Notes: a model not told the origin generated them from the sequence alone. Shown: positions 50,816-63,133, counted from the stretch's first letter. The stretch: DNA of 64,000 nt from an uncultured Bacilli bacterium (GCA_934096125.1 CAKOLB010000004.1:55117-119116), one strand, 5' to 3'. Program-made: numbers and translations.

Positions 50816-50928
50816 TAATATGTGGTTAATCGTAGGCGCAGTGTATAACTTTAATAAGCTTCTTATTTTACTGTATATGATGGTATAATAGATATATCAA
50901 ATAACTTTAAAGATGAGAGGTGAAAAGA

Positions 50929-51840
50929 ATGTTATATATAACTGGTGATACTCATGGAGATTTTTATAGATTTGGTCATTTAGGATTAAATGAAGGTGAT
51001 ATTATGATTATCTTAGGGGATGTGGGTATTAATTATTACTTAGATGAATATGATAAAAAGTTAAAGGAAAGATTAAAAAGATATAATTTTAAATTTTTCT
51101 GTATTCAAGGTAATCATGAAAAAAGACCAGAAAATATTTCAAGTTACCACGAAGTGGAAATGTTTGGCGGTAAAGTATTTGTAGAAGATGAATATCCTAA
51201 TTTAGTATTTGCTAAAAATGGAGAACTTTATAATATTGATGACAAAAGTATTTTAGTAATAGGTGGAGCTTATTCTATTGATAAAGATTATAGAATAAGT
51301 AAAGGATATCCTTGGTTCAAAGATGAACAATTAACTGAGAAAGAGAGACTAAATATATTGGACGAGTATTCTGGTAAACATGTGGATATAATTTTATCTC
51401 ATACTTGTCCATTAAGATATGAACCTAAAGAAAGCTTTAAATTAAGTTTGCCACAGATTGCGATAGATAAATCTATGGAGTATTTTCTAAATGAAGTAGA
51501 GCAAAGAGTAGATTATGGTAAATGGTATTGTGGACATTATCATTTAGAAAAAATTGTGGACAAGTTAGAGTTTATGTTTGGAAGAATTAAAAGTGTTGAC
51601 ACAGGAGAATTTATTCCTAAATATGATTTCCATAATGGCTACAAAATAGTTAGAGATGTATGTAGTCAAAAAGATTATAAATATTGTCCTGAATGTAAAG
51701 GAGATAATATAATTATAGAAAAAGGTGAAGGACATAATATTAATGGTTTAGATTTTATTGCTATCATTTGTAATGATTGTAAAAAAGTTTATGGATTTAA
51801 TGATGTTAATTATAAACGTAATTGTCCTAAAGAATTGTAA
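50929..51840 (+). CDS. calcineurin-like metallophosphoesterase with C-terminal zinc-ribbon
   Basis: YITGDTHGD…GNHE MPP motifs. C-terminal CPECKGD…CNDCKK. Sigma-A-like -10 TATAAT upstream at about 50885. Confidence 0.6.
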   Translation: MLYITGDTHGDFYRFGHLGLNEGDIMIILGDVGINYYLDEYDKKLKERLKRYNFKFFCIQGNHEKRPENISSYHEVEMFGGKVFVEDEYPNLVFAKNGELYNIDDKSILVIGGAYSIDKDYRISKGYPWFKDEQLTEKERLNILDEYSGKHVDIILSHTCPLRYEPKESFKLSLPQIAIDKSMEYFLNEVEQRVDYGKWYCGHYHLEKIVDKLEFMFGRIKSVDTGEFIPKYDFHNGYKIVRDVCSQKDYKYCPECKGDNIIIEKGEGHNINGLDFIAIICNDCKKVYGFNDVNYKRNCPKEL

Positions 51841-51902
51841 CTGTGTTTACCAAATTTTAAAATTTATGCTATAATTAAGATGTAATAATTATTTGACTAA
51901 GT

Positions 51903-52550
51903 GTGGTGAGTAGTATGGAGTATAGAAAATATTCATTTAGACATGCAGAAGATATTTTTAAAAACGATAAGGATTTTACTTATTTATGGAATGAAATTTT
52001 GGAAGTGCTTGATAGTATAAGCGATGATGATTTAATTAATGAATTTAACATTGAAACTAGAAAAGCAAAAAGCATTTCCGAAGCAATTAATAAATTAATT
52101 GCAAAAAGGCTAAGTGAAAAAGGATGGCATGAACAAAGTTACATTTTTGCTGACCCTGATTATTCTGATAATAAAGGTACATGGAGATTAGATTTTGCAA
52201 AAGATAATATTGCAATTGAAGTTGCATTTAATCATGGAGGAAATGTATCTTGGAATTTAATTAAGCCAGTATTATCTAGTGAATTAAATCATGTTAAAAA
52301 GGCAATACAAACTCAAGCTGGCGTTGTCATAACAGCAACTGATGCTATGAAAAAAGCCGGTGGATTTGATAATGCTATCGGTACCTATGAAAAATATGTT
52401 GAATATCTAAAACCATTAAATAATTTGTTAACCACACCTATGATGATAATAGGATTAGAACCACCAAAAAAGTTTACTATTGAGCAGAAAAAAGAAGATG
52501 GTAAAATGGTTGGACATGTTAAATTAAAAGAAGAAGATAATAACTTTTAG
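51903..52550 (+). CDS. hypothetical protein with possible PD-(D/E)xK (BglII/BstYI-like?) motif
   Basis: WRLDFAKDNIAIEVAFNHGG gives a D-x8-E-x-(A) spacing reminiscent of type II REase catalytic cores. Very tentative. Confidence 0.3.
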   Translation: MVSSMEYRKYSFRHAEDIFKNDKDFTYLWNEILEVLDSISDDDLINEFNIETRKAKSISEAINKLIAKRLSEKGWHEQSYIFADPDYSDNKGTWRLDFAKDNIAIEVAFNHGGNVSWNLIKPVLSSELNHVKKAIQTQAGVVITATDAMKKAGGFDNAIGTYEKYVEYLKPLNNLLTTPMMIIGLEPPKKFTIEQKKEDGKMVGHVKLKEEDNNF

Positions 52551-52601
52551 ACTTACAATTTTGTGAGTCTTTTTATTTTGAAAAAGAAAGGATACGATAT
52601 T

Positions 52602-60209: not shown

Positions 60210-60463
60210 CTAGATTAGTTTGGAATATAACTAATTTTTTTATGTCCTAATTTTGATAATAAAGTCTTATAGTTGTTCTTATTTCATAAAATGAAAGGAG
60301 AGGTGTAGATTAGTGAATATAACTGAAACTTTCGATAAAGATAAAAACTTGGTTGAATTAATAGAGGAGTATTTAAAATTGATGTTAGAAAATAGTAAGC
60401 AATAAGAGTTTGTGATATAATGATATTGCTTATTGAAGTTATACACGTTGGAAGGAGTAGTAA

Positions 60464-62089
60464 GTGTATAACAATGTAATACAAGCACCAAGTTTTTATA
60501 GAGTAGGTATATATATCAGATTATCAGAAAGTGATGAAGATAAAACTTATGAGTCAGAGAGTGAAAGTATAATCAATCAAAGAAATTTATTAATGGATTA
60601 TGTAAAAATGAGTGGATTTACTTTGGTTGATGAGTATGTAGATGATGGATTTACAGGAACTAACTTTGATAGGCCTTCTTTTCAAAGATTATTAAAAGAT
60701 ATTGAAAGTGGTCGAATCAATTGTGTAATCACAAAAGACTTATCAAGATTAGGTAGAGATTATATTCAATGTGGATATTATGTAGAACAATATTTTCCAC
60801 AAAAGAAAATTAGATATATTTCTATACTAGATCAAGTTGATACATTTCTAGAAAGTGCTAATAATGACATTGCTCCATTTAAAGCTTTGTTTAATGATAT
60901 GACTAGTAAGGATACTTCTAAGAAGATTCGTTCAATATTAAAAAATAAAAAAGAACAGGGTAAATTTATTGGAAGCAAACCATGTTATGGATATATGAGA
61001 GATCCACTTGATAAAGGACATTTAATACCCAATCCAGAAGTTGCTCCTGTTGTTAAAAGGATATTTAAAATGGCTCATTCTGGAACTGGAGTAAGTGATA
61101 TAGTATCATACTTAAATGATAATAAGATATTAAGCCCTAGTATGTATAAAAATACTAAATCATCTTCAAGACAAAAAGTGAATGTATGGACAATATCCTC
61201 AGTCAACAAATTACTAAAAAATAGAATGTATACAGGAGATATGGTACAAAATGTTCAAACTAAGTTAAGTTATAAATCTCAGAAGAAAGTTGCTTTAGAA
61301 AAAGAGTTTTGGATAATAGTTGAAAATACTCATGAACCTCTTGTTAGTAAAACAGTATTTGAAGCAATACAAAATGCTCCTGCTAGAGTAAGGACAACCC
61401 ATTGTAATAGAGAAAAAAGATTATTAGAAAATCTTCTTGTTTGCAAAGAATGTGGAAACTCTTTAAGCGTTCTTTATAGAAAAAATAAAAATTATAAGGG
61501 TGGAAAGTATTGGAGTGTTAATTGCAATAAATATGCAAGAGATCCAAGAAGACATTTGTGCTATCCACACTTCTTTCCTTATGATAAACTAGAAGAAAAA
61601 ATAATGAGTGTTATTAAAACTACTTGTCAAAAATATTTAGATAGTTTAAATATCAAAGAATTATCTGAAAGAGTATTACAAGATAGAGCAAAGGAAAAGA
61701 ATGATAGGCAAAAGGAAAAGCAACAATTATTAAATGAGATTGATGAATTAAAAAGAAAATCTGATGCTTTATATGATGACAAATTTAATGGAATAATAAG
61801 TGTTGATACTTATACAAGAATCTCTGCACAAACTGAAAAACAAATATCAGCCTTAAATTATAGAATTTATGAAATAGATAATGAAGAAAATCAGATTAAA
61901 GAAGATACAAAAGAAATAACTAAATATGAAGAACAAATAAAATCACTTTTAAATTTAGATGAACCCAACAGAGAACTCATAAAAACTTTAGTAAAAAAAA
62001 TTTATATAGATAAAGATAGAAATATAGAAATTCAATATAGATTTAAGGTGCTAGATGATATAAAAACTAATTATGAAGAAATAAATTAA
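60464..62089 (+). CDS. large serine recombinase of element 2
   Basis: VGIYIRLSESDEDK…(catalytic Ser)…DLSRLGRD resolvase domain, recombinase domain, zinc ribbon (CKECGN…C…C) and C-terminal coiled coil. GTG start with RBS GGAAGGAG. Paralogous to the 48938-50533 recombinase. Confidence 0.85.
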   Translation: MYNNVIQAPSFYRVGIYIRLSESDEDKTYESESESIINQRNLLMDYVKMSGFTLVDEYVDDGFTGTNFDRPSFQRLLKDIESGRINCVITKDLSRLGRDYIQCGYYVEQYFPQKKIRYISILDQVDTFLESANNDIAPFKALFNDMTSKDTSKKIRSILKNKKEQGKFIGSKPCYGYMRDPLDKGHLIPNPEVAPVVKRIFKMAHSGTGVSDIVSYLNDNKILSPSMYKNTKSSSRQKVNVWTISSVNKLLKNRMYTGDMVQNVQTKLSYKSQKKVALEKEFWIIVENTHEPLVSKTVFEAIQNAPARVRTTHCNREKRLLENLLVCKECGNSLSVLYRKNKNYKGGKYWSVNCNKYARDPRRHLCYPHFFPYDKLEEKIMSVIKTTCQKYLDSLNIKELSERVLQDRAKEKNDRQKEKQQLLNEIDELKRKSDALYDDKFNGIISVDTYTRISAQTEKQISALNYRIYEIDNEENQIKEDTKEITKYEEQIKSLLNLDEPNRELIKTLVKKIYIDKDRNIEIQYRFKVLDDIKTNYEEIN

Positions 62090-62206
62090 ATAATAAAAAT
62101 AGGGTGGTAAAATTTGGTAATCACACAATCTTACCATCCCCTATACTATTTTTAGAAAAAATAAAAACGCAGTAAAATCAAGAAAAATGATAGCCTAATC
62201 ACATAA

Positions 62207-63133
62207 AATCTTTCCGGAGGTGGCGATGGTGCAGAAGTAATATATGCTCTTAGAAATAATGATGTATTTGCAAGTAAAATTGCAAGAGAACTAGAGAGTG
62301 CAGGACAAAATATTAGAAAATATTATCAGAGAAGACTTCCAAGTAATCCAGCGAAAGATTATTATTATATAATGCGAGATACTCCTAATAATGAAACTGT
62401 AATTGTAGAGTATGGGTTTGCAGATTCTACTGGTGATGATGTTGAGCAGTTAAAAAATACTTGGGAAAACTTAGCAGAAGCGGTGGTTAAAGCAATTACT
62501 GAGTATGCTGGCGGTACTTATACACTTCCAAATACGGGCAATTATTACATAGTTAAAAGTGGTGATAGTCTATGGAGCATATCCAAAAAAACAGATGTTT
62601 CTATTGCCAAGATTAAGGAACTTAATAATCTTAAGAGTAATTTGTTAAGTATTGGTCAGAAATTAACATTACCACAAACAAGTGAAGATACCCCATCGCT
62701 AGATACATATATTGTTCAAAAAGGCGATAGTTTATATAAAATCGCTAACAAGTTTAATACTACTGTTGATAACTTAAAACTTATTAACAATCTTCAAAGC
62801 AATAATTTAGCTATAGGTCAAAAATTAAAGGTAAGTAGTAGTGAAAACAAATACACAGTGCAAAAAGGTGATACACTATACAGCATTGCCACTAAATTTT
62901 CTGTTAGTGTAGATTCATTAAAAAACGCTAATAATTTAGTTAGTAACACAATTGCCGTTGGTCAATCCTTAATTATCCCAGAACAAAAAACAACTAAAAC
63001 TTATACGGTTCAAAAAGGCGATAATCTTTATAGCATAGCAAGGCGATATAATACGACTGTAAATACAATAATGTCTTTAAATAATCTAGCTTCAACTAAT
63101 TTAACTATCGGTCAAAAGCTACTTGTTCCGTAA
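62207..63133 (+). pseudogene. fragment C (about 308 codons) of interrupted amidase gene: C-terminal part of Amidase_3 domain + 4 LysM repeats
   Basis: Frame opens at 62207 with …SGGGDGAEVIYALRNNDVFASKIARELESAGQ…DYYYIMRDTPNNETVIVEYGFADS (Amidase_3 C-terminal half including the Glu ligand), then four LysM repeats (YIVKSGDSLWSIS…, YIVQKGDSLYKIA…, YTVQKGDTLYSIA…, YTVQKGDNLYSIA…). The first ATG (62372) lies well inside the domain. Confidence 0.75.

Follow-up and report, generated by a model that had tools for sequence, protein, structure and literature searches.

A probable serine-recombinase element with swappable defence cargo inside a split amidase gene of an uncultured Bacilli bacterium

We analysed a stretch of 64,000 nucleotides (nt) from an uncultured Bacilli bacterium (GCA_934096125.1, CAKOLB010000004.1:55117-119116), referred to here as the window, in which a gene encoding an Amidase_3 domain and four LysM repeats is split into three pieces (A, B and C) by two insertions. 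Positions are counted from the first letter of the window, and features lie on the plus strand unless stated otherwise. The second insertion spans 11.4 kb and had been described in a first-pass annotation as a compact defence island delivered by a serine recombinase. The results support this description, and we put the probability at about 0.8 that insertion 2 is a single integrative element that is mobilised by the large serine recombinase (LSR) it encodes, carries defence cargo and belongs to a family of elements that share the same site in the amidase gene. The island holds a Hachiman system and a Sau3AI-type restriction-modification (R-M) module, and sister elements at the same site hold other defence systems.

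The window has a G+C content of ~28%. Fragment A of the amidase gene (42201-42247; MNDRALKKVVLDAGHG) is followed by insertion 1 (42248-50580), a second LSR element inserted at GHG|GDDPG. Fragment B (50581-50806) encodes GDDPG...SNHINAGG, and fragment C, from approximately 62219 to 63133, begins with GDGAEV... and comprises the remainder of Amidase_3 plus the four LysM repeats. When A, B and C were joined in silico, a single open frame of 394-395 amino acids (aa) was obtained. Intact homologues of the amidase are common in public data (395-450 aa, ~70% identity), and the second junction reads SNHINAGGGDGAEV in them. Insertion 2 extends from ~50803/50807 to ~62216/62218; the span of 50816-62215 given earlier identified the insertion correctly, with limits set ~10 bp too far inwards at the left end and 3 bp too far inwards at the right. 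The final gene of each insertion is a full-length LSR adjoining the right junction. The LSR of insertion 2 (60464-62089) is intact, contains the Resolvase (PF00239), Recombinase (PF07508) and Zn_ribbon_recom (PF13408) domains together with an RLS motif with the catalytic serine at residues 19-21, and matches the integrase family phrog_95 (6e-100). It shares only 32% protein identity with LSR1 of insertion 1 (48923-50533).

The attachment sites were delimited at both ends of insertion 2. The left site, attL (50784-50830), is made up of the amidase half-site CTAATCACATAAATGCAGG, a G-run (50801-50805), the candidate crossover dinucleotide GA (50805-50806) and the element arm CAGGACGCGTAATATGTGG. 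The right site, attR (62190-62235), presents the element arm CTAATCACATAAAATCTTTCCG, the candidate crossover GA (62217-62218) and the amidase half-site GGTGGCGATGGTGCAG. Among the three members of the window's clade (the window and loci L008 and L019), GA was the sole dinucleotide common to attL and attR, and a comparison of junctions across the LSR clades showed crossover points that differ slightly but all lie within ~15 bp of AATGCAGGAGGTGGCGATGGT. Just two copies of the 13-mer CTAATCACATAAA are present in the window, at 50784-50796 in the amidase half of attL and at 62195-62207 in the element half of attR. Because it is present in both the amidase half-site and the element arm, attP appears to mimic attB, which suggests that the attachment site of the element imitates its target half-site. 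On this basis the predicted attB is ..AATGCAGG[A/GGA]GGTGGCGATGG.. and the predicted attP is ..AAAATCTTTCCGGA|CAGGACGCGTAA...

Relatives of the LSR were scanned in one genome per species (GTDB), which returned 127 matches, and 80 loci were kept. All of these belong to metagenome-assembled genomes of uncultured gut 'Bacilli/Tenericutes/Mollicutes' of the RF39 kind, with hosts such as Acholeplasma sp. CAG:878, Ca. Faecimonas and Clostridium sp. CAG:710, and the LSR homologues range from 47 to 97% identity. A 3' fragment of the amidase, aligning from residue 1 of fragment C, was located downstream of the LSR in ~60 of the 80 loci; the distance was 40-165 bp in 38 loci and 1-7 kb in the clades of 47-74% identity. 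Where the left flank was in range, the 5' part of the amidase ended with ...SNHINAGG. Judging from these alignments, the family integrates at one short conserved site, the codons N-A-G-G|G-D-G of the Amidase_3-LysM gene. Complete elements could be delimited in 23 cases, with sizes of 6.3-14.4 kb.

The same gene also hosts other LSR lineages. LSRs of the insertion 1 type were observed at GHG|GDDPG in L039 and L062, and a third LSR clade (~40% identity) was located in the LysM-repeat part of the amidase in L035 (~18784-20792), L042 (~16083-18082) and L062 (~18945-20623). Some genomes carry three elements in one amidase gene.

Clustering of the open reading frames (ORFs) from the 23 complete sister elements and the two in the window separated a backbone from a variable middle. 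At its left end, the backbone has a gene for a 99-aa protein and one of the TnpV family, TnpV (PF14198) being present in 14 sister elements; its right part consists of an HTH_36 gene just 5' of the LSR, followed by the LSR itself. Fic, AAA_14-DUF4143, DUF4238 and Bro-N genes occupy the right end in some clades. The middle cassettes were typed by per-protein PADLOC scans of 30 representatives, which superseded an alignment-based PADLOC census of 87 cargo representatives that was too redundant to read. The R-M systems found in this position were type II of several kinds, type IIG with a specificity subunit, type III and a methyl-directed restriction endonuclease (REase). Gabija was represented by GajA (1e-186) and GajB (4e-196), and the other cargo comprised a type VI retron reverse transcriptase (RT_VI), IetS, MzaC with MzaE, and a second Hachiman system, as well as the PDC candidates TIR-containing PDC-S73 with an ATPase, PDC-S11 with PDC-S19, and PDC-S28. 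Elsewhere in the family, Hachiman was present only in L076, plus decayed remnants in L008. Comparison across the occurrences of the recombinase, as the first-pass annotation had proposed, therefore gave a small backbone with a swappable defence middle: the cargo is modular and defensive, and the amidase gene is a shared parking site for defence genes.

Some large middle-cassette genes of sister elements had no match in PADLOC, namely L056 6438-8195, L065 7412-9184, L071 3914-5428 and L076 6332-7267, the last of which is a HamA-like partner of a HamB. Since the slot otherwise holds defence systems, these genes are candidates for undescribed defence genes.

In the window, the helicase-nuclease pair of the island is composed of HamA (55985-56950), the Hachiman nuclease subunit, and HamB (56929-59322), a superfamily 2 helicase; hamA precedes hamB, and the two are adjacent and co-oriented with a 22-nt overlap. 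HamB carries DEAD, ResIII and Helicase_C domains and was assigned by PADLOC to HamB1 (9e-71), and the search of PDB sequences placed 8zue_B (1e-25) as its nearest solved relative, with the HamB chain 8vx9_B also matched. These PDB matches to HamB exclude a housekeeping RecQ/UvrB paralogue. HamA is highly divergent, with ~10% identity to solved HamA and a PADLOC value of 2e-4, and by itself it gave no Pfam match at E<=0.01 and no match among PDB sequences or in Foldseek. Its membership was established through its relatives, as PF08878 (DUF1837) was present in 37 of 38 HamA homologues, and through the PD-(D/E)xK nuclease motif that accompanies this fold, in which D154, E171 and K173 are invariant. 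The profile evidence thus identifies the pair as a type I Hachiman system. It resembles the type I systems of PDB 8zue and 8vx9/8vxy in domain content, gene order, adjacency and nuclease motif, and differs from the solved systems in the far-diverged sequence of its HamA.

The R-M module consists of a Sau3AI-family type II REase encoded on the minus strand (53070-54467) and a C5-cytosine DNA methyltransferase (54637-55875), which are divergently arranged with 170 bp between them. The REase matched the Sau3AI equivalog NF040973 over its full length with 497 bits (cutoff 300 bits) and PDLC03553 of PADLOC with 3e-105. MutH proper was excluded, as the two MutH models gave 68 bits (cutoff 243) and 44 bits (cutoff 230). 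The methyltransferase was supported by PF00145 (2e-65) and PDLC03329 (9e-166). Family membership points to recognition of GATC and methylation to GAT(m5C), m5C being 5-methylcytosine, by such a Sau3AI-type pair, and the combination recurs in L017, L019 and L080. The two alternatives that could have overturned the earlier gene calls, a housekeeping helicase and a true MutH, are thereby set aside; the divergent Sau3AI/MutH-family REase and m5C methyltransferase, as well as the nuclease-helicase pair, hold up in the PADLOC and homology searches.

A further nuclease-like gene (51903-52550) encodes a protein of the BglII/BstYI restriction-endonuclease family, which distinguishes the island from a Sau3AI R-M system. 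It had been called PD-(D/E)xK-like and is here reassigned to the BglII family on the basis of PF09195, matched above the gathering score (45 bits, cutoff 26; positions 1-162 of the 163 in the model). The PDB sequence search related it to BstYI (1sdo, 4e-4), and in a PDB profile search with the BglII-like pair, spurious designed PPR repeats ranked on top, with BstYI at 2.5e-4. Across 121 homologues, residues D97, E106, N110, H111 and K121 do not vary, and the copy in L081 is 90% identical at the aa level at ~80% nt identity; sequence conservation of this order indicates that the protein is under strong constraint. The family is also abundant and highly conserved in gut Bacilli, with 2169 matches.

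Within the window, the BglII-like gene lacks a dedicated methylase. BglII, BstYI and Sau3AI all cleave sites that contain GATC. In L083-85, the sole neighbour of the BglII-like gene is a divergent 412-aa m5C methylase; that of L083 is 71% identical to the methylase of the window and 57% identical in the target-recognition domain (TRD), and it is collinear through the target-recognition region. The methylase of L080, the partner of Sau3AI alone, is equally close, being 72% identical overall and 54% identical in the TRD. Because orthologous methylases pair with either nuclease elsewhere, one GATC-type m5C methylase may serve both the Sau3AI-like and the BglII-like nuclease of the island, and two unrelated GATC-family nucleases would then appear to share one m5C methylase as a small variant of R-M. 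We leave this as an inference in view of two findings that weigh against it. In L086-88, a 92%-identical BglII-like copy is solitary, with no adjacent methylase. In addition, the third catalytic position is an Ala (Ala108) that is invariant across the 121 homologues; the catalytic motif is D-X8-E-X-(Q/K/E), and BglII has Gln at this place. The BglII-like protein may thus not be a conventional REase.

The remaining cargo and backbone genes were located as follows. The first gene of the island (50920-51840) encodes a metallophosphoesterase (MPP) of the calcineurin-like type, matched by Metallophos and phrog_1649, whose C-terminal CxxC...CxxC motif forms the four-Cys zinc ribbon that had been recognised from the sequence. 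The HTH_36 winged-helix protein (52563-52895; cluster c2/c21) is encoded by a backbone gene of the element family, and its true start is likely the ATG at 52602, giving 97 aa. It had been termed RepA_N-like; the winged helix-turn-helix (HTH) stands, and the family is HTH_36, with matches to N-terminal PHROGs of phage replication initiators. Terminator-like hairpins were found 3' of the BglII-like gene (52549-52570), 3' of the methylase (55937-55971; 16 pairs and a T-run) and 3' of hamB (59399-59416). The last two correspond to the terminators that had been proposed at 55935-55975 and 59388-59425. A scan for terminators gave 3 sites against 2.0 +/- 1.4 in shuffles, a count not above chance, so that the support comes from their position at gene ends. 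As the hairpins directly follow gene ends, each cargo module appears to be its own transcription unit with a hairpin at the end.

Two genes of the right part were absent from the earlier gene list. The first (59637-60209) encodes a 190-aa protein that accompanies the closest LSR clade, with 38-90% identity in at least 13 loci. Searches of Pfam, NCBIfam, PHROG and PADLOC with this protein were without a match, a relationship to the HTH_36 backbone cluster was rejected (hhalign probability 0.2%), and a single-sequence AlphaFold2 model was unusable (predicted local distance difference test score of 46). The second (60313-60405; MNITETFDKDKNLVELIEEYLKLMLENSKQ) is a conserved 30-aa ORF. Every clade, at LSR identities as low as 47% (loci L001-L077), has just 5' of the LSR a small ORF of 30-43 aa that fits the pattern ..ETF..D.N...LI.EY(I/L)K..L.., and such an ORF also precedes LSR1 of insertion 1 (48715-48846, 43 aa); profile searches assigned these small ORFs to no Pfam or PHROG family. 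The 30-aa ORF is a candidate recombination directionality or regulatory factor, and either it or the 190-aa protein is a candidate for the recombination directionality factor (RDF) of insertion 2. A promoter-like sequence, AGTCTTATA-N13-CATAAAATG (60263-60293), lies 5' of the small ORF. Between the small ORF and the LSR are an extended -10 element TGTGATATAAT (60411-60421) and the conserved 8-mer GTTATACA (60438-60445). This 8-mer, which could be an operator or a -10-like element, is situated a few nt 5' of the ribosome-binding site of the LSR, at the equivalent place in insertion 1 (~48907-48914), and in most sister clades.

The distribution of the elements demonstrated that they are mobile. 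One species, recognised by an identical BglII-like protein and shared flanking genes, has an intact amidase in L088 (position 9456) and two different occupants of the gene in L086 (13305) and L087 (13306); that of L086 begins with an MmeI-type N6 methylase and that of L087 with a D12 (Dam-class) methylase. A different element was also present at the site in another sample of the window's own species (fragment C 99% identical). Across 28 loci, the identity of the LSR and that of the amidase to the window were uncorrelated (Spearman rho -0.27): the two closest amidases (79% and 75%) host LSRs of 63% and 48%, and an LSR of 94% resides in an amidase of 68%. Because the two identities are uncorrelated, this comparison shows movement of the elements between species. 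On a short time scale, the cargo of the window travels as a block. In L081, the MPP, BglII-like, Sau3AI, methylase, HamA and HamB genes are kept in the same order at 80-85% nt identity, and a block that begins with the BglII-like gene, takes in HTH_36 and ends with HamB was recovered, with an identical BglII-like protein, in three further samples, where the contigs break inside the MPP gene.

Several observations weigh against the reading of insertion 2 as one LSR-moved element of a same-site family. The homologue search revealed no intact allele of more than 90% identity, and only the 99%-identical fragment C was seen. A crossover at the candidate GA would yield four Gly and one at GG three, so that GG fits the three-Gly consensus better. 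The predicted attB and attP each gave 0 matches in JGI metagenome contigs, a weakly informative result as exact patterns were used against one collection. The gene calls in the window include no relaxase within insertion 2. Lastly, relatives in L036 and L081 are located 3.4-3.7 kb upstream of an intact amidase, outside the gene. In L036 (6791-13048), the LSR (73% identity) is followed by ..CCGGAGGTG and non-amidase DNA, with the intact amidase 3.7 kb downstream, which could reflect a secondary site, a tandem attP or an assembly artefact. In L081 (2099-10676; JGI 3300030379), the cargo block is 3.4 kb upstream of the intact copy and ends in a small-ORF remnant followed by ~240 nt from the start of the LSR; this copy represents a decaying, no longer mobile element outside the usual site.

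We then considered the link between the amidase and sporulation. RF39 bacteria are predicted to be spore-forming from their gene content (PMC10868615). The flanking chromosome of the window contains sporulation-type genes at 435-923, 5209-5985, 10890-12515 (minus strand) and 27157-27807, comprising yabG and cwlD-, spoVT- and spoVB-like genes. YabG scored above its NCBIfam equivalog cutoff, and the other three were below theirs (194 against 222 bits for the cwlD-like gene). The yabG gene is part of a metG-tatD-yabE-rsmA-yabG order, which is also that of B. subtilis. In L086, the order rplM-rpsI-Amidase_3 is followed by a SpoIID-like gene, and cwlD is also present. The amidase has no signal peptide, and CwlC, an amidase of mother-cell lysis, likewise lacks one.

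Upstream regions of the amidase, 60 nt long, were compared across 30 species, with 1120 ORF upstreams as the control. The amidase upstreams share almost nothing but one motif, whose end lies 14-20 nt 5' of the ATG. In its full form, AC-N16-17-CATAnnnTA, it was found in 21 of the 30 species against 2.1% of controls, and CATAnnnTA alone in 27 of the 30 against 4.6%. In the anchored set (n=27), the counts were T (21), m (22), A (21) and C (24), then 16 nt and CATAnnnT with A at the ninth position in 27/27, and the G expected of the sigma-A TTGACA occurred in just 2/27. The resulting TmAC-N16-CATAnnnTA matches the sigma-K consensus of B. subtilis, so that the putative amidase promoter is of the sigma-K type. 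Ahead of the small ORF that lies 5' of every LSR, that of insertion 1 included, there is likewise a CATAnnnT(T), and 13 nt before it a T-T-A-T-A box; the arrangement resembles the -10 elements of mother-cell sigma factors, the match being weaker than that of the amidase. Besides the lack of attB and attP matches in the JGI contigs, three points count against the sporulation link: the amidase promoter of the window has the -10 (CATATAATA, 42178-42186, upstream of fragment A) but no -35 AC; CATAnnnTA includes TAnnnT, which is compatible with sigma-A; and yabG, the internal positive control in the window, has no sigma-K-type motif upstream.

These observations allow a developmental model, to which we assign somewhat less than an even chance, in which the amidase would be a late sigma-K-type gene of the mother cell and the element would be excised there. 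As long as the element and insertion 1 upstream of it are in place, the amidase is split. In the sporulating mother cell, the CATA-type promoter 5' of the small ORF and LSR would turn on excision, and precise LSR excision of both insertions would restore the 394-395-aa frame, as seen in silico. The amidase would then be expressed late from its sigma-K-type promoter, as CwlC is, and the spore would keep the element. A fuller version of this model seems rather doubtful to us, namely that at least three LSR lineages, each with its own evolved site, use one late sigma-K lysis amidase of the mother cell as a developmental parking lot for interchangeable anti-phage cassettes. These would be excised only in the terminal mother cell, where a sigma-E/K-type promoter would drive the LSR along with a hitherto undescribed directionality factor of 30-40 aa. 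The first-pass annotation had proposed that such islands hitch-hike vertically, being removed from the mother cell and retained in the forespore. The sporulation-gene link in this proposal is plausible and gained indirect support, such as the sigma-K-type motif in 21 of 30 species, but purely vertical spread did not, because the elements also move between species.

Similar weight is given to an explanation in which the amidase is dispensable, the stretch encoding NAGGGDG is simply a convenient shared site, and the gene is dead while occupied, with excision occurring only in transfer. The coexistence of intact and interrupted alleles within a species, the abundance of intact amidase genes among relatives and the horizontal movement of the elements are all in keeping with such a safe harbour, as are the decayed immobile copies (the truncated LSR of L081 and the HamA remnants of L008) and the failure of the exact attB and attP patterns to match JGI metagenome contigs. 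It accounts less readily for three LSR clades at three points of one gene, with up to three per genome, and for a frame that is kept at every junction checked, with split fragments that are still open at 99% identity. The conservation of a sigma-K-type promoter before the amidase and of a CATA-type motif before the small ORF and LSR in all clades likewise counts against a neutral site.

It is improbable that insertion 2 is the remnant of a prophage or conjugative element with its defence genes as leftover moron cargo. The phage-related PHROG matches of the HTH_36 protein and the MPP, and the Bro-N, Fic and TnpV genes of sister elements, could be taken as traces of such an origin. However, structural, lysis, packaging and conjugation genes were present in 0/23 complete elements, the sizes are tightly distributed at 6-14 kb, and the LSR is intact, with the same minimal backbone across LSR clades that are 47-97% identical. 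An assembly or binning artefact, with contigs joined chimerically, is more improbable still: the source is probably a metagenome assembly, and the sister contigs that carry this cargo are broken on either side of it, but the same attL/attR architecture recurs at the same codon in dozens of independent assemblies from different studies, and joining restores the frame exactly.

A one-element, same-site-family reading of insertion 2 has practical consequences. An LSR beside a split Amidase_3-LysM gene is a searchable locus for mining defence genes in an uncultured gut lineage with reduced genomes. The dozens of LSRs with inferable attachment sites would be useful for the integrase toolbox, with the tiny ORF as a candidate directionality factor. 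If the sporulation link is true, gene-intervening elements gain a new target gene, a new order and a direct tie to defence-island biology. On the fuller developmental model, defence islands would impose no cost on the germ line and be inherited through spores, and would still spread between species.

The literature searched gave no earlier account of LSR elements that reside in an amidase gene or occur in RF39, and the individual defence systems are already known. Cassettes of the SCCmec type, which depend on the LSRs CcrA/B/C, likewise vary in cargo and use a single conserved gene of the chromosome. That gene, rlmH, receives SCC at its 3' end and is not inactivated. Membership of the SCC (Ccr) group was rejected, as the LSRs of the window scored 103 and 142 bits against a Ccr equivalog cutoff of 900. 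Tn4451, Tn4453 and Tn6104-6106 are integrative mobilisable elements of Clostridia with a TnpX LSR, TnpV and Mob (PMC3158075). They are similar in being small and LSR-driven, with a 2-bp crossover to which the candidate GA core of the clade-A junctions corresponds, and TnpV in sister elements and the Mob_Pre relaxase of insertion 1 are features of this type. Insertion 1 encodes, besides the relaxase, an AAA_13 ATPase (with weak PDC-S06 matches) and two XRE HTH proteins, and it resembles a Tn4451/Tn6104-type mobilisable element because of its relaxase and ATPase. Insertion 2 was excluded from the Tn4451/Tn4453 family, as it has the LSR only and neither TnpV nor a relaxase. Tn4451 uses many loosely similar sites and carries resistance genes, whereas the family described here uses strictly one gene and carries defence genes.

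The closest parallels are elements that intervene in sporulation genes. In skin (sigK) and SPbeta (spsM), the LSRs SpoIVCA and SprA act on intervening elements (PMC4191935, PMC5499854, PMC5025042). As in the present family, the LSR is located at one end, the element splits a gene and the two parts join in frame; a small accessory factor (SprB, CD1234) sets direction and timing. These elements are prophages or their remnants, and their recombinase or RDF has a mother-cell promoter that is proven, whereas insertion 2 has no phage genes, and its RDF and promoter are predicted. In Bacillus cereus ATCC 10987, gerE harbours the gin element, an island of non-prophage type that encodes serine recombinases and an R-M system and leaves the gene during sporulation (PMC5595907). 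It shares with insertion 2 a position inside a coding sequence and a cargo of R-M and serine recombinase genes; precise excision rebuilds gerE, a late mother-cell gene, and is predicted to rebuild the amidase gene. With gin, 31 genes and three recombinases are confined to one species group, and excision in sporulation was demonstrated experimentally (PMC5595907). Here, a single LSR moves 6-14 kb with almost only defence cargo, the target is an amidase gene in ~60 species of an uncultured order, and excision was reconstructed in silico. We regard the element as a member of the gene-intervening LSR elements and arguably a variant of them, since three LSR lineages occupy one gene, a minimal backbone carries swappable cargo confined to defence, and a tiny ORF is universal.

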